The notes: generated from the sequence alone by a model not told the origin. Positions 5,901-62,721 are shown, counted from the stretch's first letter. The stretch is 64,000 nt of DNA from Massalongia carnosa (GCA_965645245.1 OZ287087.1:992001-1056000), one strand, 5' to 3'. Numbers and translations: made by a program.

Positions 5901-6233
5901 GCGCAATCAGTCCCACTGAGCAAAAAACGACTGAAAATACACACGATGCTAAAAAAGGCAGAAAGCGCCCTGACAAAACAGATCCGCACCGGTAAGATCG
6001 GTCTAGCTGACTTCCTCTACCAGCGACGGGTCCCCGCCGTCACCTCACCGGCCTGCCCATGTGACTGGCACAGAAAATCTCCAGAACATGTAATTTTGTT
6101 CTGTAGACTTATTGACAATAGAGAACAGATGTTTTGCGCCGCTGGCACGAACAATTATCAACAGCTGACCGAAACATCAAAAACTCTAAAGATATTAACT
6201 ACTTGGCTAATGAAAACAGGTCTACTGACCTAA
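2912..6233 (+). pseudogene. LINE ORF2 (AP endonuclease, reverse transcriptase, C-terminal Zn finger), disrupted
   Basis: ORF pieces 3315..3917, 4083..4658 and 5256..6233 carry APE, RT and CPCDW..HVILFC motifs; multiple stops and frameshifts. Confidence 0.9.
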
Positions 6234-7131: not shown

Positions 7132-7615
7132 TGTAATAGGGTGGGCCTAGTATGCGTTCGTTGATCGTAAGACTGGCCTATGTGGCTATGTGGGATACGT
7201 ACAGCCAAAACAACCACCAAGACAATAAGGTCCCGCCTAACCCAGTTAAGCATAGTGTGGGGACTTAACTTATTATGGAGGTGTTTTCGTAGTACACGAA
7301 GTATCCCCTCGCCTCGCCTCACCTCCCCTAGCTCACCTGCCTAGTCTTATCTACCCGTGTCTTTCGGTGTCCGAAGTATTTCGGAGTCCAAAAATACCAG
7401 GTAGTATGGGCAAGGTATGGAAGAAGAGCTTAGGTTATGGATTGTCCTATCCTATATAGATCAATGATCAAGCACTTTAAAAGGGTAGCATTTAGTCTAC
7501 CCTTTGACCCTACCCAACCTATTTGTACCTCTATTGTGACCATCACGTTGTGTAGCCCCTGTGGATCCCATCTTCCAGTAGTGAATGCCTGCTGGGAGAA
7601 GGGCTCCCCGTTTCA
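7132..7615. mobile_element. Solo LTR, family S1 (inverted relative to 592..1075)
   Basis: TGTAA...TTTCA termini, perfect TSD AATAG (7127-7131/7616-7620). Confidence 0.93.
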
Positions 7616-14392: not shown

Positions 14393-15434
14393 GATGAAGT
14401 CAGATGAAGAGAGTCAGATGAAGATAAAGAAGAGGTCTCTAGTAAACTTCTGTAGATTGAAAGGTATATAAGTTTCTGAGATTGGTGCAGAAGTAGGATG
14501 TGCACTGAAATGAATGGAGGATATGGGAATATGTGATCTAGTTATAGACAAAACATTTCCCTTCCTTTGTCATCAAACTGTGATGTTCCTTTCTTTGCCA
14601 CAACGTTTGTACCCTCATGAAAGAACTCTCTTCAGATGGTGAAACTTGTCACGATTCTACCTTTTGCCTTTAGGAACTAAGCCTAATCGAGCACCTACGG
14701 AAACCGTGGACGGACCTGTCGGCCGGCCGGCAGGAGTCACGAGATAGCGCGGAAAACTCTTTCGCGAACTTACTGAGTGGGGACTAGAGAGCGCGTTGCT
14801 TTATAGGGAACGAGTCCGACTTTTCGAGTCTTTCTTTCCTCTTTATCTTTATTGTTTTCGTTCATGACGTCCCTATGACTAGCCTCTAGGTAGACCGTAA
14901 CAAAACATTCACTTGGTGGTGTGGAGATAGGGGGCTGTCGGAACCACGGTCCGACCATTTCATTTAATAGACTGCGAATGTTAAATGGAATAAGGTTTTT
15001 TCCGGATTCCGAATTTCCCGATTGAGGCGTTCTGCTTAATTGAAGTCTGATTACTCCATCTGTATACGCGTAGACTAGTCAGAAAGTCTGTTGATGAATA
15101 ATGCAGCAAGGATCAAAGCTTGGAACTGAATTTCCGTAGTCTGTCTCTGGATCAAAGTATGTTGAGTGGTGATGCAGCAAAAGTCAGAATGAAGTCTACC
15201 CTTGGGTCAACGTCAGTTATTTGATGATTCAGCAGAAATCGGACCATGAAAGATAGTTTAGATGGTCGGTCTCTGGGTCAAAGTAAGTTGAGTGGTGATG
15301 CAGCAAAAGTCAGAATGAAGTCTGCCCTTGGGTTAACGTCAGTCAATTGATGATTCAGCAGAAATCAGAGTTTCATAAGTGGTCAAGGCCGCGCTGCGCG
15401 GTTTTTGAACAAAACTCAGTGAAAAGGTCTGTTC

Positions 15435-15806
15435 CTGGGTCAAAGTCAAATGAATGATGATGCAGCAGAGGTCAATCGTTGGAACTGGTCCACTGGAGTT
15501 CCGTCTCTGGGTCAAAGTCAGATGAATGATGATGCAGCAGAGGTCACTCATTGGAACTGGTCCACTGGAGTTCTGTCTCTGGGTCAAAGTCAAATGAATG
15601 ATGATGTAGCAGAGGTCACTCATTGGAACTGGTCCACTGGAGTCTATCTCTGGGTCAATGTCAAATGAGTGATGATGCAGCAGAGGTCAAACCTTGGAGC
15701 TAGTCCACTGGAGTCTGCCTCTGGGTCAAAAGTCAAATGGATGGTATTGCAGCAGAGGTCAAACAATGGAATTGGTCCACTGGAGTCTGCCTCTGGGTCA
15801 ACGTCA
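15435..15806. repeat. Tandem array of ~72-bp units (5 copies) in the Copia-1 leader
   Basis: Units CTGGGTCAAAGTCAAATGAATGATGATGCAGCAGAGGTCA...GGTCCACTGGAG start at 15435, 15507, 15579, 15650 and 15721; more degenerate related units at ~15085-15370. Confidence 0.92.
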
Positions 15807-16240: not shown

Positions 16241-17989
16241 TGTTGAATAGGTCTATGACGATGGCCATATGACTAGGTAAAGATAGGGGCCTGTATAACC
16301 ATGATGTTAAGGAAGCAGAGATGCTACGGAGTGCAGAGCAATCTGTTTCTTTTATCTTAGTCACCTCTGCTAAGCGAGATGGTAATAGTTTATCCGAGCC
16401 TCTATGCGATTAGATTAGATTTGATCTTATCTAATCTATCGGCTAGGCAATGCTGGTAGAAGTTGAACATTTAAAAACCAGTTATGATTTGCATTGAAAT
16501 CTCCACATATTTCGAATTGATCATTGAATTTAGGTTTATATTTGACTAAAAGTCGGTCGATTGTATATGTTTCTCGATCATTTTGACTTTTTGTAAATGT
16601 TGATAATATGCACTTTTCGAAATTCATCAATTGTAATCTGAATAATTTCCATATCGGTATCGTCAATAAGATCCGTTCTAGGCGTGCATTGTAATTTCGA
16701 ATTACATTTTGTGAAAAATATAGCTACTCTCGAGTGATAAGCTGCTATTTCCGGCATAATGCATGTGAATGACGGATGAGAGATAGTTTTTTGATAGCGT
16801 ATCCAAGGTTCCTGACATGAAACAATATCAATTTGATTTAATATTACATATTCTAGACAAGAAATCATTGCATTCGTTGACTTTACATAATTGTGTTGAA
16901 TAAATTTGACATTTTTTATATTTTCGATGTTTGTCAACGAATGCTGTCCTGCCATTACAAAACGGATAATTCGTCAATCGATTTTCGAACGTTTAACGAC
17001 GCAATCATTTCAAATCGTTCATCATTTGACTGATGATTTTGATTGCAATTGACGCATTTGACGACGACATGTGAACACCCTATTTTGGATTTGCAAGTTG
17101 TGCATTCATGATTTTGAGTTTCATAATTTTGTGCACATATATTTCATTTCGCTTGATATTTGCATTGACAATGCTTGTTTCCAAATTTTCGGCAATTGAT
17201 GCATTGCGTATTCTGACGAACGGAGGTATATATTTCCGTGTTATAGTGTCTTCCCGCGATATTTACACCTCTCAACGCGTACAAAGCAATATCTAAGAAT
17301 GATAAAATAGAGTTGAAATCTCCTTCGTGAAGTCTCTATCCAAGTTATCGTTCATCTCACTGGTGCGTTTTACGGCCCAAGACTATGGATAAATTCTACT
17401 ATTGGGGTAAACGACGTCCCTTTCGCCCAGGTCAAACCCAGTTTACTCCTTAAGTATATATCAAGGGCTAGTCTAGCCGTAGCCCATGCGCCGGCGAAAC
17501 GACGGGGTCTCGTTACGAGCGAGATAGAGATTCCCTGCTCTATATACACCGACATACGCATACTGTCCTCTCGGGCTATGCAGACGGTCTTCGTACGGTG
17601 GCCGCCATTGCATACCACGCCTCACGGGTTTTTTATGCCCACTTCGCGTTATTCATAAAGGTTTCCCGTTTATGAACCGACCATGTCTCGGAGGGGTTTC
17701 GACTACTATGCTCCTGACTGTAAGAACCTCTATCCAGGGAATATAAATAGTAGTCATCTACCTAAGAGGCTAAGCATGAAGAAGAGAATTCTATCTACAA
17801 AGAAAAATGTGAAATCTATATACCCCGTTTGCCCTTCTTCTCGAAGTTTCCATCAGGCTCTTGAAGCTTATCTCCGAAGCTTCGGTCGGAAAGAGCCGTT
17901 GGATTTAGCGCTCCCAAACCCGAGTCCTAACACTAACCCCCCCTCTTGGTTAGCGAGCTCCTGACCGCTGTCATGTGATTAGCTTCGGT

Positions 17990-27705: not shown

Positions 27706-27905
27706 NNNNNNNNNNNNNNNNNNNNNNNNNNNNNNNNNNNNNNNNNNNNNNNNNNNNNNNNNNNNNNNNNNNNNNNNNNNNNNNNNNNNNNNNNNNNNNN
27801 NNNNNNNNNNNNNNNNNNNNNNNNNNNNNNNNNNNNNNNNNNNNNNNNNNNNNNNNNNNNNNNNNNNNNNNNNNNNNNNNNNNNNNNNNNNNNNNNNNNN
27901 NNNNN
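27706..27905. other. Assembly gap (200 N)
   Basis: Run of N next to GA-rich low-complexity sequence; matching hAT and Gypsy TSDs on either side support the scaffold join. Confidence 0.99.
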
Positions 27906-30900
27906 AAGGGTGTAGTGGATAAGGTGGAGGAGGAGTAGGAGGAAGAGGGGTGTGGTGGAGGATGAGGTAGAGGAGGGGGGTAGAGAGGGTGGGGGTGACA
28001 AGAAGGTGTAGAGTAAAGGAAGAGATGGCAAGAGACTTTCTTTACGAATTTTGAATAGAAAGCGAGCGATAAAGGGGCGACATACTTCGATATTCGATAG
28101 AAGATAGCATATGAATTTGTGATAGTCTTTATGTTAGTTCGACGTCAACGAAATAAATATTTTATCTATAATCTACATTTTACTTTGTGATAGTCATTTA
28201 AATAAATCTACAATGATTGAAAATCCTAACTCATGTGATAAATATTGCATTCGTGTTTCGTGGTAGTCATGCTAGTAGTCATAATTTACACTCGCAGATT
28301 TTTTCTGTGGGTAATGATATATGGACACCCTACCCGATACTTAGAGTCTAGGTAGCGGATAGGGTGTCTATATGTCAGTACCCTTTTCTGTTGGGTAACC
28401 CAACGATAACCCAACCCAACCCAAAACCTATTGGGTTGGGTTCTCATTTTAATAACCCAACCCAACCAATTCCGCGGCGTAGTTCTTCTTCTAATTTTCC
28501 TAGATGAACGGTTTAATATCGTGTTCAGGATAGCAAGGGTTAAAGAAGATGCTTAGTCTAATGTAAGAACTACTATCCAGGGAAGAAGAATAGTAGTCAG
28601 CTACCTAAGAGACTAAGCATGAAGAAAAGAAATCTATCTACAAAAGAATGTGAAATCTATATACCCCGTTTGCCCTTCTTCTCGAAATTTCCATCAGGCT
28701 CTAGAAGCTTATCTCCGAAGCTTCGGTCGGAAAGAGCGTTTGGATTTAACGCTCCCACACCCGAGTCCTGACACTGACCAGGCAGTCTAGTATCGATTTC
28801 CCGTCTCTACTAAACCAAAACGAGTCGAGGACAAATCGGAGGGGTTCTCGTTTGAAATTCGTCTATTAGCTCAGAGCCTAGATTGTTATCAATTAACGGG
28901 TTCCTCGAACAATGCCCTCTTCTTATCCCACGGGTGTCCTATTTGATGACTAGGTTGCCTCCACCATCCCCGGTACGACTCCGGTTCGGGCCGTGATGCT
29001 CACGGTAGCCATTAATCGCATGGTTCTCATAACCCAAATCCCTTGTATCGTGTAGGGTGTGACCCTTTACTACGTGTCTATATAATTCGATTTCTTTCAG
29101 CCGGAGGGCTCCGTGTTGTAGACAGAGGAGATTCATATGAGGGATATAGCTGAGCCGTGTCTTACGTCTCTAGCTCTCAGCCGATGACTGCATGAAACGA
29201 CTTTAATCTTTATAAGTATAAATGAACGTTGTTAACGAGATCTATAAAAATCTTATTAACGAGGTCTTCGAGAACAATATTAACGAAGTTCCGCTGAACT
29301 GTTTTCATTCGTTTTGTGATCCATTGAGGTCTACCCGTGTAAAATCCAAACCATGCCCGTGTCAAAATGCATTATTTTCAGCTGATGACGGCTAGAAAGG
29401 ACTCGAAACTCTAAAAATATGTACTCCACTATTAACGAGGTACAGATCTGCTTCAACGTGCCCCCGCAGAAACCCATTCACAGGAATGTTTTATTGATTT
29501 GCGACTGTATGTTTTTTGACTGTGTGTTTGTGACTATATATTTGTAACTGTGTGCTTTGTATAACGTGTGATTGATAAATATGTATTTTGCGACTCAATG
29601 TTTTCCTCGAATTTATTTAACATGCCGGGCCTGTTAAATAGGATATTGTTATTCTGCTCCGAGATCGAGTTTTCTTGGGGTGACAGCATTCGCCCCGGTG
29701 CCTTTACGCGTTCTGTTGATCCCAGCTGATGACTGCGTAGGGAGACTTGAACTCTCATGAGCTAGAACTCGTGTCGAATGTGCCCGGGTGTGGGATGATG
29801 GGGCTTCTTTGGTCCACATCTTCTTCCAGCTGATGACTGCATAAAGGGACTTGAACCCTTAGAAGCATGTTGCAAGGACGCGCGCAATCGACCCCCTGGC
29901 GGTTGTCCTTCGTATCCTCTTCCGCACGTACGTCTGCGAGGCGTATAAACGCGTTAAATAAGCATTGTTTTAATGCGAAGAGATAGGAGCAAATCTATAT
30001 TTTTGACGGTCGATCCACGTTGAGGCCTTTGGCGTCTCCGTTGTGAGGACCGATTGAGTAGAAGGAGGAGGAACGATGCTATAGAAGGAGGAGGACCGAT
30101 GGTGTACAAGGAGGAAGACCGATCGATTATGACTATATGACTAGGTAATAATAAAGATATTTACGACCGTGATATTAAGAATTCATATACGAATTAGAAG
30201 TTTAAAGTTTGTTGAATAATCATCAATTCGACGAATCAGCGATATATTTGCAAAACATTTTCGAAAACGCGACTGAAATATTTATTTTAATAACAAAAAT
30301 TTGTGCAAAATCGAATAATTGGTTGTCGCAAGACTTAACCGAACTTCGAAAAGCCATTTGCAGACATCGTCGAGAATAGAAGAATTATCCGTCCAATTTT
30401 AGTCATCGGACGTTGAAAAATATTTGAATCGAGTATTATCATGCAATTCTACAAGCAAAAAAACAAACCTGGTTGACTTTTCCAGAAAATAGAGTAAATA
30501 AAGATGTATTTACCGCGTATAAATACACTAAACCGCGCATATTTGAAAAAACACCCCCGATTAACAAGATAAATGTTCAGTTTTATAACAAAAATTTGTG
30601 CAAAATCGAAAAATTGGTTTTCGCAAGATTTAACCGAACTTCGAAAAGCCATGTGCAGACATCGTCGAGAATGGAAGAATTATCCGTCCAATTTTAGTCA
30701 TCGGACGTTGAAAAATACTTGAATCAAGTATTATCATACAATTCTACAAGCAAAACAACAAACCTGGTTGACTTTTCCAGAAAATAAAGTAAATAAAGAT
30801 GTATTTACCACGTATAAATACACTAAACCGCACATATTTGAAAAATTACCCCTGATTCTACATGAAAACAAGATAAATGTTCAGTTTTATGACAAATATG

Positions 30901-34478: not shown

Positions 34479-34789
34479 GAATCAGATGTTTTACCAGTCA
34501 AACTTCTATTATTAATGAAAAATCTAAAATACGCAATTCGATTATTGAAGATTGCCGAAAATAACTCTATTTGTCAAAGAATTCCAAAAATATATTCGAT
34601 AAAATTCGAAAACATCGGTTTTGACACTAGTTTAAGGAATAACAAATATGTTGAATGGAACGAAGTCGAAAAACAAACAATAAACCGACATACTTGTCAG
34701 CTTATTCCCGTTCTTCATTCCGTTTCCGAAATAGTCCACAAAACTTATAAATTTGGACAATCATATAATTTTATTAAACCTTGGAAATC

Positions 34790-35965
34790 GGTCCTCCTCT
34801 TTCTACACCATCAGTCCTCCCCTTTATACACTATCGGTCCTCCTCTTTCTACACTATCGGTCCTCCTCTTTGTACACCATCGGTCCTCCTCTTTCTACAC
34901 CGTTGTAATACGGATGGCGCTAGAAGGATACGTGATCGCCTACGGCGGTTGCGGGATTAACTAGCATGAGCCAGGCCGTAGTACTTAGTCGCACAGCCGT
35001 CGAGGTTAACACGACGCTACCTTGCCACACAACTCCGAATTAGTTGTTACTACGTTCTAGACTGTTTACAGATCAAACACATGTCGAGGCCGTGGTGGTA
35101 GATTGCCATGGAGTAAGGCGAACTCCTGTGGAGAAACCGTGAACTCTATATGGGATCTGCTGGCCTACTCGGAGCTACTCGATCTCTTGATAGATCAAGA
35201 GTTGTAGCAGGAGTCACGGCTAGCTGGACGCAGCTTGAGCTCGCCTCCCCTATGTAAACTTCAGCTTCCACCTTTATTGCTACGTTGGTAGTGATGTCGA
35301 CTGAATAAACCTACATGACCTTGTTGTCTAGACCTTGTGTCTAGAGGCAGGTCCGCAGTGTAGATAGAGATTCAGTCGGAGGTAACCTTCCATCGCTACG
35401 TTGGTAGTTGTGACGGCAAAATGAAGCTACATAGCCTCGGCGTCTAGACTTTATGTTTAAAGGCGGGCTAGCAATGTAGTGAGGGATCAAGCCGGAGGTA
35501 GAGGTGTTCGACCTTGCAAGGGAAGGTCTAGAAGGCTGCTCGAGGCTGACTAGATAATCCAGCGAACGCCGAGTTCGTAGATGGATCCTGTGGGATGGTT
35601 AGAGGTAATGCGATAAGGTCAGAAGTGGGTTGCAAGGCTCCTAAGGTTCCAAGGCTCCCAAGGCTATAGGCTTGGGGTGAGTAGAATAAATACCAGAACG
35701 AATCCTGTATTATTCGTTAGCAATTAGTCTTTATTCTATGAACAACCTACGTTTGGGTCTCGGACGAGATCTATTGGTCTAAGCACTTCTACATCTATTA
35801 GTTCTTTAGATCACGTATACTCTCGGAGACTAGCACGTAGTAGCTATCGTCCTCTTCTCACGCTGAGCATTTCCCCTTTCGAGATCAGTGTCGCTCGTGA
35901 TTAGCTTACTAGTCTCGTAGCCCATTACAACTATCGGTTGTCCTCTTCCTACACTATCGGTCCTC
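34790..35965 (+). repeat. 23-bp tandem array GGTCCTCCTCTTTCTACACYATC (~6-7 units, split by an LTR)
   Basis: Five units at 34790-34903, more at 35930-35965; same unit inverted at ~30045-30123 and ~44912-44951. Confidence 0.9.
34904..35929. mobile_element. Probable solo LTR, family S3 (1026 bp)
   Basis: TGTAAT...ATTACA inverted termini; imperfect TSD ACCGT/ACTAT within a repeat unit; noncoding, internal ~110-bp direct repeat, AATAAA. Confidence 0.75.
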
Positions 35966-37667
35966 ACAACGGAGACGCCAAAGGCCTCACCGTGGGGCGA
36001 CCGTCAAATATATAGATTTGCTCCTATCTCTTCGCATCAAAATATTAATAATTTAACGCGTTCAAACGCGTCGCAGACGTACGTACGGAAGAGGATACGA
36101 AGGCCAACCGCCGGGGGGGTAGAATGCGCGCGTCCCTGCACCATGCTTCTAAGGGTTCAAGTTCCTTCATGCAGTCATCAGCTGGAAGAAGATGTGGACC
36201 AAAGGAGCCATAATCCCCTACCCGGGTACAGTCGAATCGCGTTCTAGCTCCTGAGAGTTCAAGTCTCCCTATGCAGTCATCAGATAGGATGAACTGAACG
36301 CGTAAAGGCACTGGCGCGAAAGCTGTCACCTTAAGTAAACTCCATCTCGGAGCAGAATAACAATATCCCATTTATAGGCCAACCTGTTAAATAAAATCGA
36401 GGAAAATACAGAGTCACAAAACAAATAGTCATCAATCACACGTTGTACAAAGCACACAGTCGCAAACATACAGTCACAAACAAATGGTCACAAATCATAT
36501 AGTCACAAAAAACACAATCACAAATCAATAACACGTCCCTGTGAAGGGGGTTCTGCGGAGGCTCGTTAAGACAGATCTGCACTCCGATAATATCGGAGTA
36601 TATATTTTTAGAGGTTCAAGTCCTTTCTAGCAGTCATCAGCTAAAATTAATTTATTTTGACACCGGCATGGTGTGGATTTGACAAGGGTAGACCTCGATA
36701 GATCACAAAACGAATAAAAAGAGTTCAGCGGAACTTCGTTAATATTGTTCTCGAAGACCTCGTTAATAAGATTTTTGTAGACCTCGTAAACAACGTTCGG
36801 TCATACTTTTAAATTTTCAAGTCCTTTCATGCAGTAATCGGCTGAGAACTATAGACGTATGACACGGGTCAGCTATGTCTATCACACGGGTCTCCTTCGT
36901 ATACAAAACGGAGCTCTCCGGCTGAAAGAAATAACACATATAGACAAATAGTGTAGGGTCATACCCTATACGATACAAGGCATTTTGGTTATGAAAACCA
37001 TCCGATTGATAGCTACCGTGAGCATCACGGCCCGAACCGAAGTCTTACCGGGGATGGTGGAGGCAATTTATTCGTCAAATAGGACACGCTTGGGACAAGA
37101 AGAGGGTAATATACGAGGAGCCCGTTAATTGATAACAGTCTAGGCCCTTAGCTAATAGACGAATTCCTAACGAGCGCCCCTCCGAGTTGTCCTCGACTCG
37201 TTTTAGTTAGTAGGGACGGAAAGTCGATACTATACTGAGTGGTCAGGAGCATAGTGGTTGAAATCCCTACGAGTCATGGTCGGTTCATAAACGGGAGGAC
37301 TTTATGAATAACGCGAAGTAGGCGTAAAAAACCCCTGAGGCGTGGTATGCAACAGCGGCCACCGTACGGAGACCGTCTGCATAGCCAGAGACGACAGTAT
37401 ACGCATGTCGGTGTAAATAGAGCAGGGGATGTCTATCTCGCTCATAACGAGACCCCGTCGTTTCGAGGGCGCATTAGCTACGGCTAGACTTGCCCTTGAT
37501 ATGTGCTTAAGGAGTAAACTTGGTTTGACCTGGGCGAAAGTGACGTCGTTCACCCCAATCGTAGAAATCATCAATAGTCTTGGCCCCTAAAACGCACCAG
37601 TGATATGAACGAAAACTGGGATAGAGACTTTACGAAGGAGATGTCAACTCTATTTTACCATTCTTAG

Positions 37668-39131
37668 CCTTTGACACGCAATCCAAAAACTATTTCTCAT
37701 CCGTAATTTACATAATTATGCCGAAAATAGCAGCTTATCGATCGAGAGTAGCTGTATTTGTTACAGAATGCAATTCGAAATTAAATTGAACGTCAAGAAC
37801 GGATCTTATTGACGATACCGATATGCAAATTATCCAGATTACAATTGATAAAGTTCGAAATGTGCACATTATCAGCATTTACAATGAAAAAAGTTAAAAC
37901 GATCGAGAAACATATACAATTAACCGACTTTTAGTCAAATATTAACCATTATTCAATGATCAATTCGTAATATATGGAAATTTCAATGAAAATCATAACT
38001 GGTGGAATTCGAAAATACAGCATGCAATTCGATCTGAAAATCTATACAAATAATTAAAATTATAAAAGAGTAGTTTGATTGATACGCCTCATTTATGCAC
38101 ATTTTATGCCCATTTTGGTTGTTCTGCATCTGTTATTGATTTAACCTTTGCAAATACTAAAATCAAAAATGCAATAACAAATTGATCAATCGATAAAAAC
38201 GCAGTCACAGGTTCAGATCATGACCTCATTCGATTTGAATTTATCGCATATTTTAAGAATTTGACGACACATGCAACCGTATTATCAAACAAATACAATT
38301 ACAATAAATCCGAGTATAACAAGTTCTTAAAGTTTTTAGATGAAAATTCAATAAGCTACGAAAAACCAGTTCAAAGTTTATTGAATAATCATAAATTCGA
38401 CGAATCAGCGATTTATTTGCAAGATATTATTATTATTATTAAATTCATAATCGTTGTGAAATCAGCTACAGCCGACCCATGCGAGAAAAGCTATCAAAGT
38501 TTCAAAGAAGGAAAACCCTCATCTAGGGGAAAAAACCTTCATCTGTATACCTACACGTGATCGCTCGACCTCACTTCGCGAATGGTACGATTTGCCAGCG
38601 CCACGTCTACGACACATATGTGTATCAAGAGACTGCCTTCTGTCTCTGTTATAACTAGAGTTTGTGACTATCACTACGCGACAGTCTGGGGGAGGAAGAA
38701 AGACAATCTACAGCTAGCGAAAACTGTGTCAATAGATTAGTCCGCATAAGCCAACGAGCGGAGGCTTGTAAGCCCTTTTCGGTGGTCTGAAGGCGGCGAT
38801 AATCCGTCGTTCCGGCGTCTCTGTACATGTTGCTTCGGCCGTTAACAAACTTGGGGCAGCTGAGTAGTACATGCTTGTGGGAACTCGACGAGAGAATCGA
38901 TAATCCGCCAAGCCAATACGCTCAGTACGCACTTGAATTATGAGACTGCTATCGGATTTGCTGAAGTTCTTATGTAATCCTAGTCTCTATATAGAAAGAT
39001 CTTCAGTAAGCTCAGCGCAGGGATGAGGCTGATGAGCCGCCTGATGCAAGATATTATTAAAGACGTAGCTGAATTATTTATTCCGAAGACTAAAATATTT
39101 GCAAAATCGAAAAATTGGTAGTCGCAAGATT
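37668..39131 (+). mobile_element. 5'-truncated LINE-A (APE region) fused to X copy 2
   Basis: Begins just after the QE of QEPW; continues TISHP..., TGSDHD; rejoins across 38433..39044. Confidence 0.8.
38433..39044 (-). mobile_element. Short 3' fragment of a Tad-like LINE
   Basis: TSD TGCAAGATATTATTA (38418-38432/39045-39059); (TAA)n tail; IQVRTERIGLADY homologous to the LINE-B C-terminus. Confidence 0.88.
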
Positions 39132-40500
39132 TATTTTTTTATTTATTCATCAAGTTTATTAAAACTAAGGTTATGACATTAAACTATTTTATGATATATT
39201 TCTATAATACAAATCAATCAATCAATCAACCAATCTCTGAATCGTCAATTTTGCCCCGTTTTTATACCGTGTTAGTAACACCTAAAAATAATCGAATTTA
39301 GATTTTACAATTTGTGTTTGTAAACTTCGTAAATGTTTCAGCATAAATCAATTCTGATTTTACTGTCGATCTCTTCCCAACCTCCCGTTTCGAGAATTTC
39401 GTCTTCTAGCTGACCTAGTATCCATTTTCTAGTAGCGATTTTTGTTTTAACAATAAACTTTATCAAAATATCATTTCCAATTTTGGTATTGAATAACATA
39501 TTTAAATTGATTGTAGTATCTGCATTTTATTTCATTATTTGAATCTCTTTAAAATAGTGAATGCAGTTCAGCAATAGATGTTCTGGTGTTTGAAGATCGT
39601 TACATCGATGTGTGCATTTCGACGAATTATAATCTTTCAATCGATGTAGATATGATCGGAAATAATAGTGTCCGAACTTCAGCTGTATAATGGTATCAAA
39701 GATCAATTTCGAATAATTGTTTGACAAACGATAAAAACTCGATTTGCTATGTTACATTTCGAATTTCTCGTAAGATTTGCCTTTTAACCTGCATCGTTGC
39801 CATTGATTCGTCCATGTTTTTAGCGTATATTGATAAATTTGACTTTTCAAATAGTCCAATGTGATCGCTGATGACTCCACTAGGATTTGACTGTGACCCG
39901 ATTTCGCCGTTTTGTCTGCAATTTCATTTTCGATAATTTTCAAATGACTAGGAATCCATTGCAGAATTATCTGAAATTTATTTTTGAATAAACATTTGGC
40001 AATCTTTCGAATTTGCTTCGCGTAAATATGATTAGTAAAATTTTGAATTTCATTTATCGCATTTAAACTATCGGAAAATATCCATATTGTTTTTTCATTC
40101 GCGTTCGTCAATTTATATGTCCATTTGACTGTTTGTGAAATCGCACGAAGTTTAGCATTTTAAATGCTTGACTGTTTGCTACAATTTCCAGCTTTTCGAA
40201 ATTGTATAATATTTAATAAAGCAATCTTTTTCAATAAAGTGATCGAAATCATCGATAAAATTGTTCTATTTTTGGATAATTGGTGCAAATGTGACAGCAG
40301 AAGTTGCAAATTTGACTTTTGAACCATCCGTATAAAGTAATATTCGTGATATATCGGAATTCGTAGATTGAATTTTTGACAAAGTCGAATAATAACTTGA
40401 TTTTGCTGTTTCTTTTGACTTATTAATTTGAAATTCAATTTGAAAGGACGAATTCTATGGTTCATAAAGTTATTTGATTGTTCGAATTCATCAGTTTTGT

Positions 40501-43234
40501 TTTTTTTTTTTTATACATTAAGTGTATACATCCTAAGGTTATGATACTAAACTATTTAAGGATATGTTTATATATTACAAATAAATCAATCCTTTATAAC
40601 CTATCTATGTATCGTCAATTTTTCCCAATTTTTACTCCGTGTTAATAATAACCTATAGTAATCGAAAAATATCGAGTTTAAAATTTGTTTTTCTAAGTTC
40701 GCAAATGTTTCAGCACAACTTGTTTCCGATTTTACTGTTCGATCTCTCCGCAACCTCCAGTATCGAAAATATTGTCATCAAGCTGACCTAGTATCAATTT
40801 TCTAGTCGCGATTTTGTTATTGACAATGACTTTAATCACAATGTCATTTCCGATTTTTGTATTAAACAAGATATTCAAGATGATCGTAGTATCGATACTT
40901 TGTTTCATGTTTTGAATTTCATCGAAATAGTGAATGCAATTCAATAACAAGTTTTCTGGTGTTTGTCGTTGATTGCATCGATTTGTGCATTTTGACAAAT
41001 TATGATCATTCAATCAATGTAAATATAATCGAAAATAGCCGTGTCCGAACTTTAATTGCATAATAGTAGCAAATATCAATTTGGAACAGAAGTTTCATAA
41101 ATAATAAAATCTCGATATGCCAGGTTTCATTTCGAATTTCTAGTAGTATTTGCCTTTTGATTTGTATTGTTACCATTTATTCGTCCATGTCTTTAGCATA
41201 TTTTGATTTATTTGATCTTTTAAAGAATCAAATATTATCGCCGAGGACTCGACTAGGATTTGATTATGGCCCATCTTTGAGCTTTTTTCTGCAATTTCGT
41301 TTTCGGTAATATTTGAATGACTCGGAACCCATTGCAAAATCACCTGATAATTGATTTAAATTAAGCGTTTGCGAGCTTTCGAATTTGTCTTGCGAAAATA
41401 TGATTTGTCAAATTATGAATTTCGTTTATCGCGTTTATACTATCAGCAAAAATCCAAATCGTTTTTTCTAAATTCGATAAAATATTAGTATTGGACAATT
41501 CATAGACCCATTTCATTGCTTGTAAAATCGCATGCAGTTCAGCATTTTTAATGCTTGACTGTTTGCTTAATTTCCAGCTTTTCAAAATGGTATGATACTT
41601 GATCAGACAATTTTTTTCGATAAATCGATAAAATTACTGATAATATTACTCTAATTCCTTATAATTGGCGCAAATGTGACTGCAGACGTTGCAAATTCAA
41701 TTTTTGATCTATCCGTATAAAGTAAAACTCGGGATTTATCGGAGTTCATTGATTGAATTTTTGATAGGGTTGAATAATAACTAGATTTAGCAGATTAATT
41801 TGTATTTTCGATTTGAAATTAGATTCCGCACGGCGATTTCAAAGGTTTAATAAAATGATTTGATTGTTCAAATTCATCAGTTTTGTGAACTATGTCGGAA
41901 ATGGAATGAAGAACGCGAATAAGCTGACTAGGATGTCGTTTATTTGTTTGCTTTTCGTCTTCGTTCCTTTCGGCATATTTGTTGTTCCATAAACTAGTGT
42001 CAAAACCGATGTTTTCGAATTTCATCGAATATGAGTTTGGAATTCTTTGACAAATAGGGTTATTTTCGGCAATCTTCAAAAATCGAATTGAGTATTTTTG
42101 TTTTTCATAACTAATCGAAGTTTAACAGGTAAAATATTTGATTCAATTTCCCTCGCCTGAATAGCTGTGGTTTTGAAAGTTCCTAAAATCTTTCGAATAA
42201 TTCGATTTTGTAGGTTCTGAAACAGTTTTCATATTTCTTTTGACCATTATGCCAAATTTCTGAGCCGTAGTCCGAAATAGGAATAATGCATGACAAATAG
42301 AGCTGTCTTCATGCGGTCGGTTTCAGACACCATTCGGATTTCATCAAATTCTGAATTACAAAAAACGATCGATTCTGTAACGGTTCGACCAAGCGTGGTG
42401 CGGACGGCAGGACCTACAGCGAACATAGCATTAGTCCCAGTTATAGTAGAATAGAGCTTGGTCTGCGCACTAAGTATTGTGCCTTTTGTTCGGGAAGGAC
42501 AGGTGGCGCAATGGTAGAAATCTATTCACTATCTCGCTTCGTAACAGATTTGCAGAAGAGATTCGCGTTTCGACGTGTTTTTTGAAATTTAGTTTTCGGT
42601 CTAACCAGACACCCAACCATTTGACTATATTTTTCGGTTCTAGTACTGTCCCGTTTCGTAATTCCAATATTTCTTTCGATACATTTCTTTTCTTTTCGAA
42701 GTAAATCAGCTCGGATTTATCGTCATTAAATTTGACATTATTCGATGCGGCCCAATCAAAGGCCGTTTTGACTTTGATTCCGATTTCTATGCAATTCTGT
42801 TTTGCAGTTTTATTTTCGAAATATATTGCAAAATCTTTAATAAAACTGGGAGAATTTGCATTGAATTTCATTCGTATTTTAGGAAACAAGTGACCAATGT
42901 AAATCAGAAATAGAATAGGCGAGATTGGTGATGCTTGTGGAATTCCTGATTCGAAATAATATGTTTTGCTTTTAATTTTATCAAATATCAAATTGTTCGA
43001 TCGTTTTGTCATGAAATGCTTGACCCATTGAATTATTGTGGGGGGTGGTTTTGGCTTTTTCATAATATTTAGCAGTTGATTAATCGAGATAAAGTCAAAT
43101 TCGCCCTTAACATCGAGTAATAAACATGATAAGACGTTTTTATTTCGATTGGCAATTTCATTATTATGAACAACATTTATTACTGCGTCGATTGCAGAAT
43201 GATTTTTGCGTCCGCCCATCTGTTCGATGTCGAG
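40501..43234 (-). mobile_element. 5'-truncated LINE-A (RT-RNase H-3'UTR-polyA) fused to X copy 3
   Basis: Poly(A) at 40501-40513; ORF 42470..43219 (NHSAIDAV, PISPILF); RNase H NAELHAI, IFADS. Confidence 0.9.
42376..42546. mobile_element. Solo LTR, family S2
   Basis: TGTAACG...CGTAACA, TSD GATTC/GATTT (1 mismatch); inverted homologue of 31147..31317. Confidence 0.9.
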
Positions 43235-44951
43235 CTAAGAATGATAAAATAGAGTTGACATCTCCTTCGTGAAGTCTCTATCCCAGTTTTCGTTCATCTC
43301 ACTGGTGTATTTTACGGCCCAAGACTATTGATGAACTCTACGATTGGGGTGGACGACATCCCTTTCACCCAGGTCAAACCAAGTATACTCCTTAAGCATA
43401 TATCAAGTGCGAGTCTAGCTGTAGCCGATGCACCGGCGAACCGACGGGGTCTCGTTATTAGCGAGATAGACATTCCCTGCTCTATATTAACCGACATGCG
43501 CATACTCTCCTCTCGGGCTTTGCAGACGGTCTCTGTACGGTGGCCGCAATTGCATACCACGCCTCACGGGTTTTTTAACCCCACTTCGCGTTATTTATAA
43601 AGGTCTCCCTTTTATGAACCGACCATGTCTCGGACAGATTTCGACAGCTATGCTCCTTACCAGGCAGTAGAGTATCCATTTTCCGTCCCTACTAACCAAA
43701 ACGAGTCGAGGACAACTCGGAGGGGTGCTCGTTTGAAATTCGTCTATTAGCTCAGGGCCTAGACTTTTATCAATTAACGGGTTCCTCGTATATTGCTGTC
43801 TTCTTGTCCCAAGGGTGTCCTATTTGATGAATACGTTGACTCCACCATCCCCGGTACGACTCCGGTTCGGGCCGTGTTGCTCACGGTAGCCATCAATCGG
43901 ATGGTTTTCATAACCCAATCCCTTGTATCGTGTAGGGTGTTACCCTACACTATGTATCTATATGTTTTATTTCTTTCAGCCGGAGGGCTCCGTGTTGAAG
44001 ACGAAGGAGACCCTTGTGATAGACATAGCTGACCCGTGTCGTACGTCTTTAGCTCTCAGCCGATGACTGCATAAAAAGACTTGAACCTTTAAGAGTATGA
44101 CCAAACGTTGTTAACGAGGTCTATGAAAATTTTATTAACGAGGTCTTCGAGATCAATATTAAGGAAATTCCGCTGAACTCTTTTCATTTGTTTTGTGCTC
44201 AATCGAGGTCTACCCGTGTCAAATCCACACCATGCCCGTGTCAAAATACATTATTTTCAGCTGGACTTGAACAACTAAAAATATGTAATCCGATATTAAC
44301 GGGGTTCAGATCTGTCTTAACGAGCCCCTGCAGAGCCCCCTTCACAGGGACATGTTATTGATTTGTGACTGTGTTTTTTATGACTGTGTGTTTTGTGACT
44401 GTATGTTTGTAATTGTATGTTTGTGACTGTTTGCTTTGTGACTGTGTGCTTTGTACAACGTGTGATTGATGACTATGTGTTTTGTGACTTTGTTTTCCTC
44501 GATTTTAGTTAACAAGCCGGGCCTATTAAATGGGATATTGTTATTCTGCTCCGAGATGGAGTTTTCTTGAGGTGACAGCATTCGCCCCGGTGCCTTTACG
44601 CGTTCTGTTGATCCCAGCTGATGACTGCATGGGGAGACTTGAACTCCCAGGAGCTAGAACGCCTTTCGACTGTGCCCGGGTGGGGGATGATCCGGCTCCT
44701 TTGGTCCACATCTTCTTTCAGCTGATGACTGCATGAAGGGACTTGAACCCTTAGAAGCATGGTGCAGGGACGCGCGCATTCTACCCCCCGGCGGTTGTCC
44801 TTCGTATCCTCTTCCGTACGTACGTCTGTGACGCGTGTGAACGCGTTAAATTAGCATTGTTTTTATGCGAAGAGATAGGTGCAAATCGATTTTTGACGGT
44901 CGTTCCACGGTGAGGACAGATGGTATAGAAGGAGGAGGACCAATGGTGTAG
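43235..44951 (-). mobile_element. Unclassified element X, copy 3 (uninterrupted, ~1.7 kb)
   Basis: Starts CTAAGAATGATAAAATAGAGTTG exactly like copy 1; ends in ~2 units of the 23-bp repeat. Confidence 0.88.
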
Positions 44952-47021
44952 GCTCGTCCGTCTCGAATCTTATCTGTATCGAGTTCTTATATTCAGCGGT
45001 GAAAAGAGCTCTCATCAGTTGTTTGAACTATGTCCGAAACGGAGTGCAGAACGCGAATAAGCTGACTAGGATATCGTTATTTGATTGTTTTTCGTCTTCG
45101 TTCCATTCTTCATATTTGTTGTTCCATACGCTAGTATCAAAACCGATGTTTTCGAATTTCATCGAATATGTGTTTGGAATTCTTTTATAAAGGGGATTAT
45201 TTTCGGTAATCTTCAATAATCGAATAGCATACTTTTTATTTTTTATGAATAATCATAATCTTACTGGTGAGATATGTGATTCAATTTCTATCGACTCATC
45301 TGTTGTTGTTTTGAATGTTCCTAAAATCTTTCGAATCATCCGATTTTGCAAATTTTGAAATAGTTTTTTATATTTCTTTTGACCATTGTACCAAATTTCT
45401 GAACCATAATCTGAAATAGAAACGATGCATGACAAATAAATCTGTCTGCATGCTGTCGGTTTTAGACCCCATTCCGAGTTCATCAAATTTTGAATCGCAA
45501 AGAACGACCGATTTGCAGATGAAATTCGAGTTTCGACATGTTTTTTGTAATTCAGTTTTCGATTTAGCCAGATTCCCAACCATTTGACTATATTTTGCGG
45601 TTCTAGTATGGTTCCGTTGGGTAATTGCAGTGTGTCTTTCGATGCATTTCTTGTCTTTTCGATGTGAATCTGTTCGGATTTATCGTCATCAAATTTAACA
45701 TTATTCGATGCGGCCCAATCAGATGTTATTTTAACTATGATTTCAATTTCTTTGCAATTCTGTTTTGCAGTTTTGTTTTCGACATATCTTGCAACATCGT
45801 CAATAAAACTAGGAGAACGTGCATTGAATTCAATTACGTAATTTCGGAAATAAGTGACGAATATAGATCGAAAATAATATATGCGAAATAGGTGAGCCCT
45901 GTGGAATTCCTGATTCAATATAATAGGTTTGCTTTTTATGTTCATCGATTATTAGATTGACCGATCGTTATGTAATAATATGTTTCACAAATTGAATAAC
46001 TATGCGAGATAATTTCAGAATTTTTATGACATTTAACAGCTGATTAATCGATACAAAGTTAAAAGCTCCTTTGATGTCGAGTTATAAATATGATAAAATA
46101 TTCTTTTTTCGATTTCCTATTTCGATATCATAAACGACGGTCATGACTGCGTCAATTGCAGAATGATTTATGCGTCCGCCCATCTGTTCGATATCTAATT
46201 AATTCGAATTTTCGACGATGTAGGCAATGCGATTTGCAACGATTTTGTCAGCAATTTTACCACAACAGTTTAGTAAAGTGATAATCCGATATGATTTTGG
46301 CAGCCAATGGTCTGATTTATTAGGTTTTTTCAAAAACTGCACCGAATCCTGTTCGCAAGCATAAAGGATTAAGACCGGTTTTGTATAAATTTTTAAAAAA
46401 TCATAAAAAACACGTTTTTCACCGATCGAAACGATTTTTGAACAATTGTGAAATTGATTGCATCAGATCCACATGCTTTTTTCGGATTAAACAAACTAAT
46501 CGCTTTTTGCACCTTGTTTTCTGTCAAATCCGGCCAAATATCGTTATCTTCATTGTTTTGATTCGATAAATCTTCAACATTATCGTCAATAAATGGGTTT
46601 TTTGTGTACATTGCTGCCACAAATGCATCGCATTTGTCATCGAATTGAAAATTTAACTTATTTTTACATTGAATCGGTGGTATTTTTTCGAATATGCGCG
46701 GTTTGGTGTATTTATACGCGGTAAATACGTCTTTATTCGCTGCATTTTCTAGAAAAGTCAACCAAGTCTGTTGTTTTGATTTTCGAATTGCATGAAAATA
46801 TTCGATTCGACTATGTTTAAACGTTCTATGACTAAAATCGGACGGTTAATTCTTCTATTCTCGTCGATATATTGACATTATTTTCCGAAGTTCGGTTAAA
46901 TCTTGCGACCACCAATTTTTCGATTTTGCACATATTTTTGGTCTTCGGTATAAACAATTCAGCTGCCTCTTAAATAATATCTTACAAATAAATCGCTGAT
47001 TCGTCGAATTTATAATTATTC

Positions 47022-56447: not shown

Positions 56448-57253
56448 TACCAGAAACCTTAAATATAGAAATGAACTTCAAAAATTTTGACGCGACGACA
56501 ACAGGTGTACAGTAACGCAACAGTGAGTGTTTTTTGTGGATAATTTCGGTGATAATAACTGAGGTCTATGCGACAATAAAATCGAAGAGATATCGAAAAT
56601 TGAGCGATTTTGATAGAATTGTAGATGTTTTTGGTATTTTATAAATTTTAGGGGGCGTTTTTGGAGGGAGTTGGATTGATGCGATGTCAGGGCATAGAAG
56701 GAATAAGGGCTAAGCTAACTAAGCGGGGCTTAGTTCTACGGCTAGGCTTAGTCATATGGAAAGCAGTTGGTCTGCGTTACGCGGCTGGTATCTACTGCCG
56801 AGAGTATAGTACGAGCGATCGAGATATACGAGGATGCTCGTACGATTAGTGAGCGGATGGTACGATACAGTCAGCACAGTGTCCACGATACAGTCAGCAC
56901 AGTGTCCACGATGCAGTCAGCAGAGTGTTTAGCCGGCTTATCCGGTAGGAGTAATGGGCGGTCAAGATAGTTACAGTATCAAGGGCCCAGAGGGTCAAGG
57001 GCTTCGGTCCGGGTATATAAGGAGGCTGCTCGAGGGAGATGCAATCTTCAACGATTAGTCTTCCGCTTTACCTACATACTTCTTTTAGTATATTAGTATA
57101 GCAAATCATTAGTGTCTTCACATTGTCACATATCCCTAGGCCTGGTGTCTGATAATCGCCAGGTCTGACTCTTACAATTCTAATCGTTCTATCCTTCAAG
57201 GAGTGACGATCCGTTGACACATTTATACACCTTCTATACACTATCGTCCCGCC

Positions 57254-58495
57254 ATGTCCGCGCAAGAAGTTGCCTCTGATACCATGATGCCGGAGGAGCG
57301 GATCGAAGAACTTTCGGATTCTGAGGGCCCTGGAAGAGGAGCCCTGACCCCAATGGAAAAAGTAGTCGAACCCATTCAACCCCTGACGTTAGACGAACAG
57401 ATAGCGCAAGCTGAGCGCAGGCGTAGCGAACTTAAGAAGGAAGTACGTCTGAGGAATTTGAAAGCCAGTATTGAGCAACTGCAAGAACAAACTCAAAAGC
57501 CTTCGAAACCTCCAAACCCTACCGGATCATCCAAGGAACCGGTAATGAGAGGAGCCATTAACCCTCGTTCTGACGACAATGTAGAGATGACGAGTAGCCA
57601 GTCAGTACCTGTTGTTGTTTACAGGAGACGCGCTGCTAGACCCGAGAAAGTCAGTCCCTATCATGGAAAAACGGTCAAGGAACATCTGGATTATGAGCGG
57701 AACTGCAGAGTGGCGTTTCGCGTGGCAAAAGAGGATTTCCCAGATGATGAATCCAAGATCGCTTTCGCAATGCAATCGCTGGAAGGGGAGCCTAAGGAAG
57801 CTTGGCATCGATATGAGGCAGACGGTGAAATGCACAATTATACCTTCGAAGAGTACTTGAAATTCTTGTTAAATATTGTCGAGGACCCAGTTAATCGAGG
57901 TCTGCATATGGCCCAATTATTTGCCGAAGCCAAGCAAGGAGAGAAGCAAACGGTAAGAGCTTTCGAGGCGCACTTGAGTAGCCTCGAGGACCAGTTGCCC
58001 TCCTATACCGAAGAACAAAGAGCGACTCATCTGTTTACTAAGTTGCGGCCGTCTATTAGAGCAGCTATAGGCAACTATCAGAATATTCCAAGGACTAGAG
58101 AAGCTCTGGTGACTCTGGCCAGTAGGCTGGAAAACAATCAGAAAAGAGAAAACGATGTCTTAACGACGTCGAAGCATGAGCGTCCAAATGTTTCTCACCC
58201 CCCTCGCACTAAATCACATAGAGATAAGAGGAACGAGGAGATAAAGGACACTGACAAACCAAAACCTACGAAAGACGGTAAAAGGGGTCAGAAAAGAAAG
58301 CATGCTGAGACAAAGGAAAGTACCGACGAGGTGACATGTTATCGCTGCGGAGAACAGGGTCACTACGCCAACAAGTGTCCCAACCCTCCTAAAGACGACA
58401 AGGAGCCGAAGCACGGTGTGAACGCCGTCGCAAAGTCGGGAAAAGCCAAACCTCCACGGAAAGCTCGCCAGCCGATGGAGGGAAACGATCAGTAG
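57254..58495 (+). CDS. gag: Gypsy-2 Gag (413 aa)
   Basis: Intact ORF; KQGEKQTVRAF capsid motif; CYRCGEQGHYANKC knuckle. Confidence 0.93.
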   Translation: MSAQEVASDTMMPEERIEELSDSEGPGRGALTPMEKVVEPIQPLTLDEQIAQAERRRSELKKEVRLRNLKASIEQLQEQTQKPSKPPNPTGSSKEPVMRGAINPRSDDNVEMTSSQSVPVVVYRRRAARPEKVSPYHGKTVKEHLDYERNCRVAFRVAKEDFPDDESKIAFAMQSLEGEPKEAWHRYEADGEMHNYTFEEYLKFLLNIVEDPVNRGLHMAQLFAEAKQGEKQTVRAFEAHLSSLEDQLPSYTEEQRATHLFTKLRPSIRAAIGNYQNIPRTREALVTLASRLENNQKRENDVLTTSKHERPNVSHPPRTKSHRDKRNEEIKDTDKPKPTKDGKRGQKRKHAETKESTDEVTCYRCGEQGHYANKCPNPPKDDKEPKHGVNAVAKSGKAKPPRKARQPMEGNDQ

Positions 58496-61400: not shown

Positions 61401-62244
61401 AAAGACGAAACGCCGGCTTAGCACGGCCTTTCACCCTCAAACTGATGGCCAAATCGAACCACAAAACCAGACCCTTGAACACTATTTGAGAGTTTACTGC
61501 ACTGACAATCAATCCAACTGGGTGGCACTATTGCCCCAAGCACAATTTGTCTACCAAGTCAGTTATCAAAGTACGCTTGGGTGCAGCCCCTTTTATTGTA
61601 TGTACGGCTATAACCCGGAGATTCGCTACGAAGTCGGGGACGACATCGCTGTGGAGAGGGTGCCCGCTGCGAAAGAACGAGTAAAGCAATTACACGAGTT
61701 CAGATATTCTTTAGAGGCACGCTGGAAAAGCGTATCCGAAGCGCAGGCCAAGTACTACAACAGGAAACATCTTGAGAAAGATTTCAATGAAGGGGACTTG
61801 GTAATGTTATCTGCCAAGAATCTAAAACAAAAAAGGCCTAGTAAGAAACTTTCACATAAGTTTTTAGGTCCTTTTCGCATTCTAGAAGCATTCGGCAAGC
61901 AGGCGTATCGTCTTGCTCTTCCTACGACTTATAGAATTCACCCGGTCTTTCATGTCTCTTACCTAGAACCTTACAAGCGAAGAGATGGTCAAGAGCATAT
62001 ACCGTTTCTACCCCCACCTGAAATTATTAACGATGAACAGGAATGGGAAGTGGAAGAAATTATAGGTAGAAGGTCTGAGAAAGGGGAAATATTCTATAAG
62101 GTAAAATGGGTAGGATACCCTGAAGAATATGATGAGTGGGTACCAGAGAAAGATCTGGATGGAGCCTTAGAACTGAAGCAGGATTTCGATGCAAAGCAGA
62201 AAGCAAAGCGCAGGCGAATCAAGAAACTACAGGTTACTCGCTGA
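58438..62244 (+). CDS. pol: Gypsy-2 Pol (PR-RT-RH-IN-chromodomain) in the -1 frame; single TAG at 58717
   Basis: Slippery G GGA AAA 58438-58444; LLDGAAEINV protease site; LCVDYRGLN, YLDDILVFS, ETDAS, IDFITGFP, SDRG, FHPQTDGQ, GPF, EWEVEEI..YKVKWVGY. Confidence 0.92.
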
Positions 62245-62721
62245 ATCCAGCAAAACCCTTCTTATTCGCCATCTCATCACCATCGGAACTTTCTGCTTTC
62301 TCGTCCGGCACCTCATCATCACCATCAGTATCTTCTACTTCCTCGTCCGACTCCTCATCACCCTTTTCTTCCTTGAGACTCTCGCTGGAGGAGCATTCGG
62401 AGACAACAATCTCGTACTCCTCACCGTCTTCACCTAAATCAACAAACCATCAACGCTAGCGTTACCGAGCTCGGATCTCTGCTGCTAATCGCCATCGTCC
62501 CCTTCTCCGCTACTTCTAGCGCTCGGAGCGGCATCGGCGACCCAGCATTACCGAGAAGCTAGTGATATTTACATCTACCTACGTCAAGCGCCAGGTATTC
62601 GCGCTTTCTACACAACAAACTTGCTATCTACGCGAGATCTTCTATCACGTCCCTACACACTCCCTTCCGCGTTCGAGTACTGTACGTGTTGGAGGACCAG
62701 CACTATAGGAGAGGAGGCAAT

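Follow-up and report, generated by a model that had tools for sequence, protein, structure and literature searches.

The closest described system is the MINE element of Magnaporthe, which consists of a full-length, 1.1-kb non-coding RNA termed WEIRD and an MGL LINE truncated at 28 different sites (PMC2104539). The fusions were explained by the LINE reverse transcriptase switching templates, a GCC junction motif was reported for MGL, and WEIRD was treated as a captured cellular RNA of unknown function in one fungus (PMC2104539, 2007). In the available sections of that paper no solo copy of WEIRD and no relatives in other genomes are reported as found and no structure is described, and the precedent has so far stood as an unexplained curiosity known from a single fungus (PMC2104539). 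No later account of the structure of the WEIRD leader was encountered in the literature searched, and searches on T-loop elements in retrotransposons and on WEIRD or MINE yielded nothing on the module motif presented here.

Mammalian U6-L1 chimeras are a further relative of this kind of architecture, in which a non-coding part (here called the head) is joined to a LINE. Two other systems have repeated units in their non-coding parts. The 5' UTRs of mouse L1 elements carry tandem monomers of ~200 nt, in variable number, which are DNA-level promoter units; we know of no report of a covarying RNA fold in them. The hammerhead ribozymes of Penelope-like elements and retrozymes are small three-way junctions repeated in non-coding parts.

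The window, i.e. the whole 64-kb stretch of DNA that was analysed, is a nest of LINE, Gypsy and Copia retrotransposons. On sequence comparison, the setting of the modules is a conserved variant, new to description, of the MINE/WEIRD kind of chimeric LINE, and the repeat that the initial annotation had called X is the ~1.7 kb non-coding head of these chimeric elements. The features in the window are:

35933..37668, + strand: head copy c36; its 5' start carries 23-nt tandem repeats that vary, and the 3' end ...CTTAG(C) is fixed (self-BLAST, three-copy boundary alignment)
36146..36188, + strand: module M1, outer stem CTTC/GAAG, inner stem AAGGG/TCCTT (covariance model, 66.2 bits)
36248..36290, + strand: module M2, degraded in copy c36 (covariance model, 54.8 bits)
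36605..36647, + strand: module M3, outer stem TTTT/AAAA (covariance model, 61.8 bits)
36806..36848, + strand: module M4, inner stem decayed in copy c36 (covariance model, 50.9 bits)
37198..37540, + strand: head core, 13 helices with 76 predicted pairs (alignment A4 of 15 sequences, RNAalifold, pair counts)
37621..37668, + strand: 3' terminal hairpin ATAGAG...CTCTAT and tail to ...CTTAG(C) (arms covary between families)
37669..38432, + strand: LINE L2, 5'-truncated, joined to c36, with an endonuclease-like part at 37946-38242 (self-BLAST; tblastn E 1.5e-6)
43234..44915, - strand: head copy c44 (self-BLAST, boundary alignment, covariance model)
44715-44757, 44611-44653 and 44053-44095, - strand: modules of c44 (relaxed pattern and covariance model)
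44248-44287, - strand: fourth module of c44, a deletion-bearing remnant (covariance model, E 0.0016)
42470..43233, - strand: reverse-transcriptase fragment of LINE L2, directly at the 3' end of c44 (Pfam RVT_1, E 2.9e-19)
28774..30077, - strand: head copy c30, 3' part missing (self-BLAST, pattern, covariance model)
29823-29865, 29719-29761, 29375-29417 and 29174-29216, - strand: modules of c30 (relaxed pattern and covariance model)
17293..17718, - strand: c17, a 5'-truncated head consisting of the last 426 nt, fused to L2 within the ORF1 region (self-BLAST, boundary alignment)

The three window repeat copies are 85-91% alike by self-BLAST. Three copies share an identical 3' end, ...CTTAG(C), which is followed by three different continuations, as the head is joined to L2 in the endonuclease region (c36), the reverse-transcriptase domain (c44) and the ORF1 region (c17). 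The last of these, which begins within the core, was taken to be a 5'-truncated head because only its final 426 nt are present. Intact L2 copies are continuous across all three junction sites and have no AG immediately before them, indicating that the junctions are not splice products, and an origin by cis-splicing or from a spliced leader was rejected on these grounds. No common motif and no microhomology were found at the three window junctions, and the GCC junction motif reported for MGL is absent from them, which is one difference from MINE as described in the sections available (PMC2104539). The head was judged to be non-coding since two head families showed ~44% tblastx identity whichever strand was read, compared with a nucleotide identity of 72%, and no Pfam family matched the ORFs in the head.

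Each module is ~43 nt long and consists of an outer stem of 4 bp or longer, a U, a 5-bp stem with a TTCAAGT loop, 4 nt, and a CAG-TCATCAG-CTG hairpin. The covarying fold is a three-way junction of helices P1, P2 and P3. P1 is the outer stem (4 to ~10 bp), P2 is the 5-bp stem, closed by G:C and capped by a 7-nt loop which obeys the T-loop rules, and P3 is the invariant CAG/CUG stem extended by one U:G pair, with a CAYYR loop. This fourth, U:G pair of P3 is retained in 61 of 63 aligned modules.

There are 11 intact modules and one remnant in the window, four modules per ~1.7 kb repeat copy. A strict pattern, defined as the T-loop heptamer, a gap of 5-12 nt and then GCAGTCATCAG, matched seven times in the window and not once in 100 dinucleotide shuffles. 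The relaxed pattern recovered the 11 modules, four on the + strand (36146-36848), four on the - strand (29174-29865) and three on the - strand (44053-44757). When the covariance model was run with filters off on the 64 kb, the same number was found at E <= 5e-18 and the remnant at E 0.0016, with no further match below E 0.2. The four + strand positions first proposed (~36151, 36253, 36610 and 36811) were thus all recovered by pattern and covariance model, and the two - strand copies proposed at 29170-29870 and 44050-44765 contain four modules and three modules plus the deleted remnant, respectively. The stem pairs listed in the initial annotation are right for the best copies, but some are degraded in c36, where the closing pair of M1 is G:U, M2 has an A:C and M4 has an unpaired AAATT. 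Contigs from four public runs have C at 36163 and G at 36815, and as these family letters restore the G:C closing pair, these stem defects of c36 are private decay of that copy. Thermodynamically, single window modules are ordinary, with energies of -5 to -11 kcal/mol and z between -1.1 and +0.75. Of the seven window modules that were folded, only two have the three-way junction as their minimum-energy structure. With single modules so weakly stable, support for the fold is comparative and not energetic.

As comparison within the window is informative between the four paralogous modules only, which is too small a sample, metagenome contigs were scanned with the two loop strings at a fixed spacing and every stem position left free, giving 74 loci. 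Among the 61 distinct exact pattern matches, 35 fold, with at least four of five inner-stem pairs, two of three P3 pairs and two of four outer-stem pairs, and 26 do not. The folding matches have many different stem sequences and 32 of them form at least three of the four outer pairs; the non-folding matches are practically unpaired, as chance matches in so large a collection would be. When the same pattern was applied to 596 Gb of bacterial and archaeal genomes, 18 matches were returned and none of them folds.

The covariation alignment was composed of 63 distinct modules, 52 from metagenome loci and all 11 from the window. Base pairs are formed in 94.0% of cells, compared with 82.2% in shuffled alignments, a percentage inflated by pre-selection of the 52 metagenome rows for pairing (inner stem at least 4/5, outer stem at least 3/4, G:U counted). 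Double changes occur in 152 cells, compared with 39 after shuffling, in an alignment where many rows are paralogues or copies of one family and hence non-independent. The observed pairing and double-change values were reached in none of 500 shuffles, and sliding the partner strand by 1-3 columns lowered pairing to 45-62%. Compensatory changes are present in eight of the nine pairs of P1 and P2. The covariation first noted among a few copies therefore holds in the larger alignment. The bias from pre-selection is answered in part by the 35/26 split, which was made before such filtering, and by the strand-symmetric filter described below.

Nearly all changes in the stems are transitions (GC, GU, AU), a class which is also produced by RIP-like mutation. 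In the seed matches the search pattern itself dictated P3 and the loops; modules found by the covariance model independently of the seed pattern retain both loops. The conserved letters lie in the hairpin loops, and the junction strand between P2 and P3 (J2/3) is variable (NNNG). The CATG found there in the window was considered as a conserved palindrome and rejected, as other families carry CTTG, CACG, CGCG and others. The spacers between modules are not conserved.

To assign the strand, a filter which treats G:U and A:C alike was applied, and 61 of 82 distinct modules pass. These contain 56 G:U and 14 A:C pairs, indicating that the functional strand is the one bearing TTCAAGT (the T-loop strand), and this is also the sense strand of LINE ORF2 in 18 metagenome loci and in the window. 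Read on the - strand, P3 gives the hammerhead heptamer, and a hammerhead-like reading of the complement was considered. It was rejected because pairing favours the T-loop strand, on which the functional assignment falls; in addition, the heptamer lies in a hairpin loop and not in a junction, no matching second core strand was seen, and the 56 G:U pairs become A:C mismatches on the - strand. The proposal that this is a repeated three-way-junction module with a T-arm-like hairpin is borne out by the compensatory changes in the 63 modules and by the asymmetry of G:U over A:C. The module is, as far as sequence can establish it, a structured RNA motif new to description.

The hairpin of P2 resembles a tRNA T-arm in having a 5-bp stem closed by G:C (58 of 63 modules) and a 7-nt loop in which positions 1, 4 and 5 are U, a purine and A, respectively. 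The loop is TTCAAGT in nearly all modules, and the sole change seen at position 4 is to G (TTCGAGT). Unlike tRNA, viral tRNA-like structures or tmRNA, the module is without an acceptor end, D arm or anticodon arm. Its topology is mirrored relative to tRNA-like structures, as the outer stem runs into the T-stem on the 5' strand and not the 3' strand, and it is internal and repeated instead of 3'-terminal. No full cloverleaf had been seen in the initial annotation, and ARAGORN predicted no tRNA genes in the 64 kb; in the window, neither the Rfam tRNA model nor the Rfam ribozymes, including hammerhead, matched at E <= 10. Nothing in Rfam 15 reached the gathering threshold in the window or in the metagenome loci searched, where the sub-threshold matches are unrelated, consistent with the view that this is not a described family. 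The sole Rfam echo was a match of 11.5 bits, far below threshold, between a module and the T-arm portion of the tmRNA model. The 14-nt string of P3 and its complement are absent from the literature searched, in which shorter strings match unrelated papers.

Heads are 1.2-1.9 kb long and contain two to five modules in their 5' half. The distance from their start to the first module, 200-690 nt overall, is 213 nt in the window and ~690 nt in the L045 family. In one metagenome family the 5' start is common to 12 of 16 rows (query row included), and the remaining four rows, representing three elements (L069, L072 and L031), are 5'-truncated heads which begin 360-570 nt before the first module. The modules of this family are held in 183-nt tandem units present in two or three copies, which resemble mouse L1 monomers in size, in varying number and in lying on the 5' side of a LINE-type element, and some families have long outer stems. 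Homology between the window head and that of the 183-nt-unit family extends beyond the modules (72% over 210 nt), and most families retain a conserved head body.

Alignment of 15 head bodies revealed long invariant blocks and a core of ~340 nt, for which RNAalifold predicts 76 pairs in 13 helices. Compensatory changes are found in 36 of the 76 pairs. Pairing in the core is 94.4%, compared with 30-46% in slid controls, and the observed value was reached in none of 500 shuffles, for a structure which was derived from the same alignment. The 3' hairpin covaries between families and is followed by ~20 nt and then YTTGG(C), which in the window is TTCTTAG(C). Conservation in the head is limited to the modules, the core and this hairpin, and does not extend to the spacers or the 5' region. 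That a leader with three structurally constrained parts is kept in divergent fungal families suggests a co-evolving LINE partner or parasite and not an accident.

Folded modules are present in 46 metagenome loci, and in 18 of these the 1.5-kb downstream flank contains a fragment of LINE ORF2 in the same orientation. The fragments start at amino acids 2, 285, 423, 456, 590, 654, 682, 686, 759, 800, 924 and 946 of ORF2, and two further loci run into ORF1-like sequence. In the 1.5-kb flanks of the 46 loci, no LINE fragment precedes the modules and none is inverted relative to them. The LINE partners are Tad1-like, APE-type elements which are truncated at many points and lie in the same orientation as the head. 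Within the family with 183-nt units, 13 loci share a common head end and have nine different continuations, and identical junctions recur in several of these loci.

The elements share with MINE, as it is described in the sections of the paper available, a full-length non-coding 5' part, a constant 3' end and a same-orientation LINE truncated at variable sites (PMC2104539). They differ in that WEIRD is 1.1 kb with no relatives reported elsewhere in those sections, whereas the present head is conserved across several divergent families (PMC2104539). The present head also has covarying T-arm-like modules, a 13-helix core and a 3' hairpin, whereas no structure is described for WEIRD there (PMC2104539).

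The reading we favour, to which we give about an even chance, is that the modules belong to a non-coding head RNA which becomes fused to a LINE by MINE-like template switching, and that they serve for RNA-level docking by T-arm mimicry. A head RNA would exist with a free 3' end, and the LINE reverse transcriptase would jump to this end from a broken or paused LINE template; we infer such a template switch as the most economical origin of the fusions. The resulting head-LINE chimeras would then retrotranspose as units, a step suggested by the identical junctions that recur in several loci. The modules themselves would be repeated docking sites which mimic the tRNA elbow or T-arm, and their partner could be an RNA-binding protein encoded by the LINE, a host factor that binds T-arms, or the core of the head itself. 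Docking would keep the head RNA in or near the LINE ribonucleoprotein, where it could be copied and mobilised. What points to this role is the combination of invariant loops and P3, compensated drift in the stems, tandem variation in copy number and a loop which follows the T-loop rules. The modules and core can serve as defined RNA motifs in a covariance-model family and in the annotation of fungal repeats. They also allow tRNA mimicry in non-LTR retrotransposition to be tested and raise the question of how the free 3' end of the head arises.

A bolder version, to which we allow a small but appreciable chance, is that the head represents a hitherto unrecognised class of large structured RNAs, widespread and conserved in ascomycetes, which depends on Tad1-like LINEs as their obligate 5' partner. 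Its core would then be catalytic, or a ribonucleoprotein scaffold, and would free the exact 3' end of the head from head-LINE transcripts, the modules would recruit a tRNA-binding host factor or LINE proteins for the jump of the reverse transcriptase, and WEIRD would be a member of the class.

The modules could alternatively act at the level of DNA as B-box/TFIIIC sites, either to drive Pol III transcription of a tRNA-derived, SINE-like head or to form, as extra-TFIIIC sites, a chromatin boundary which keeps the promoter of the head active, the fold being inherited from a tRNA ancestor; we regard this as unlikely. The B-box consensus fixes G, TTC, A and C letters, and these are the letters that never vary in the modules, so that the suggestion of a Pol III B-box stands as far as the invariant letters of the T-loop region are concerned. 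As a promoter it fares less well, since there is no clear A-box and the 1.2-1.9 kb head starts far upstream. A loose, permissive A-box pattern was found upstream of 15 of 77 modules, compared with 198 of 2000 random windows. The heads do not have the form of a short transcript that begins just upstream of the boxes and ends in a T-run, and T4-T5 runs occur inside several of them. Runs of T4 or longer on the sense strand are fewer than expected (14 vs 36.5), which counts in favour of this reading, in a set where runs of A4 or longer are also reduced (46 vs 67) and many segments belong to one family. The 183-nt tandem units could likewise be promoter "monomers" at the 5' side of the element. However, P1 and P2 show covariation and one strand prefers G:U to A:C, neither of which is needed for a site in duplex DNA. 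With a head that begins 200-690 nt upstream of the first module, and given its length and the lack of a clear A-box, the modules are unlikely to position a Pol III start, and the ARAGORN result gives no sign of a tRNA. The elements do resemble tRNA-derived SINEs in their B-box-like letters, in being non-autonomous and LINE-dependent and in their LINE-derived 3' part. They differ in the lack of a cloverleaf, in a head of 1.2-1.9 kb with two to five modules, and in a LINE part which varies in length up to almost the whole LINE.

Of similarly low probability is another role at the RNA level, in which the modules would stabilise, export or help to translate the chimeric RNA, as an exonuclease-stalling knot like the tandem xrRNAs of flaviviruses or a tRNA-like handle for export or ribosome association, with no docking to the LINE. 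The evidence for the fold and the strand serves this reading exactly as it serves docking, the modules are 5'-proximal and present in several copies, and the long outer stems of some families would suit it. On the other hand, the 5'-truncated heads (L069, L072, L031 and c17) do not start at module borders, no pseudoknot partner was seen, and the window modules are weakly stable.

It is very unlikely that the modules are processing signals or small ribozymes, by which RNase P, RNase Z or self-cleavage would cut the transcript at each module. The T-arm mimicry would suit the former, invariant loops with variable stems are typical of ribozymes, and LINEs of other clades carry 5' ribozymes. Retrotransposed heads, however, keep every module and start upstream of them, which argues that the template RNA is not cut at the modules and makes them improbable cleavage sites. 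The variable J2/3, with conserved letters confined to the hairpin loops, the lack of any Rfam ribozyme at E <= 10 and the position of the - strand heptamer in a hairpin loop, with 56 A:C mismatches on that strand, also speak against cleavage.

That the modules are a functionless relic, a tRNA-derived fragment duplicated within the repeat whose covariation reflects shared ancestry and transition-biased (RIP-like) mutation, is hardly credible: nearly all stem changes are indeed transitions and many sequences are related copies, but the modules persist in heads that have diverged everywhere outside modules, core and 3' hairpin, G:U intermediates are four times as common as A:C, the spacers are not conserved, and the private decay of c36 is absent from the family letters in the four runs.

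Several identities were considered for the other parts of the head. Telomerase RNA, RNase P, RNase MRP, SRP, U3 and group I introns were rejected for the core, as no Rfam match was obtained at E <= 1 in eight loci or at E <= 10 in L016, an exclusion which is weak for telomerase since fungal telomerase RNAs are poorly covered by Rfam; by eye, no conserved telomere template was seen. Pairing of the 3' tail with a conserved single-stranded block of the core, also judged by eye, was rejected because the tail varies and the block is constant. The 3' end of the head does not mimic that of the LINE, as L2 ends in other sequence followed by (TTGA)n. An excised intron was rejected because the shared 5' start lies in a GGAAGCGCC... 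stretch and does not resemble a 5' splice site. As a separate observation, the 3' end of the head resembles a branch site followed by a pyrimidine tract and AG.

The named LINE proteins nearest to those of the window are from ascomycetes. Loci with folded modules also carry fungal genes, and one flanking host gene is 63% identical to a Helotiales protein. Many diverged copies of the head are present in the contigs of the four public runs, one of which is labelled as a lichen metagenome.

The non-coding leader (the head), which is joined at a fixed 3' end to truncated copies of a LINE, contains a structured domain (the core) in addition to its T-arm-like modules. The core and the 3' end of the head are located as follows.

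37198-37540 (+): predicted multi-helix RNA domain of ~340 nt, highly conserved, 3' of the modules within the head
43323-43723 (-): further copy of the core region
17293-17718 (-): further copy of the core region
37621-37668 (+): covarying 3' terminal hairpin and tail, with equivalent ends in metagenome loci L001-L074, which carry module matches

Thirteen helices were predicted for the core from the head alignment, in which compensatory changes were found in 36 of the 76 pairs, and long invariant single-stranded blocks are also present. No Rfam family was matched by the core. Within the head, the core may matter more than the modules do. The tail following the 3' terminal hairpin is pyrimidine-rich and ends in YTTGG(C), the window version being TTCTTAG(C), and the 3' end of the head is similar to a branch site, pyrimidine tract and AG.

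Tandem repeats were also observed in and around the head copies. Between modules M2 and M3 a run with a unit of ~9-11 nt, of the AGTCACAAA type, occupies 36405-36530 (+), and the 5' starts of the copies carry repeats with a unit of ~23 nt and a variable copy number.

35933-35965 (+): ~23-nt repeats, head 5' start
30020-30140 (-): ~23-nt repeats, head 5' start
44860-44915 (-): ~23-nt repeats, head 5' start

An assembly gap of 200 N (27706-27905) lies near the truncated end of c30, the head copy without a 3' part.

The LINE to which the window heads are joined (L2) was located both at its own 3' ends and upstream of two head copies, c36 and c44.

39160-39240 (-): L2 3' end
6440-6520 (-): L2 3' end
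34479-34748 (+): L2 fragment upstream of c36, reverse transcriptase C-terminal region
45014-45282 (-): L2 fragment upstream of c44, same region

The two L2 3' ends have a terminal sequence in common; in one copy (TTGA)n comes next, in the other a repeat rich in A and T. Both differ from the 3' end of the head. The same L2 region is present upstream of c36 and of c44, oriented as the head, while the downstream L2 junction sites differ; the upstream fragment could represent a nested insertion, a duplication or a tripartite chimera.

Elsewhere in the window, a nearly complete LINE (ORF1 1710-2618, ORF2 ~2975-6263) lies between inverted repeats of 497 nt (587-1083 and 7124-7620; 97% complementary), which is odd for this element type. 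A 72-nt unit is present in five tandem copies at 15425-15786, with 75-92% identity to the reference copy. The Gypsy element at 56685-63021 is probably young; its direct repeats, at 56685 and 62722, are each at least 300 nt long and 98% alike. Between them lie a gag ORF and a pol ORF of 1174 aa that includes a chromodomain.
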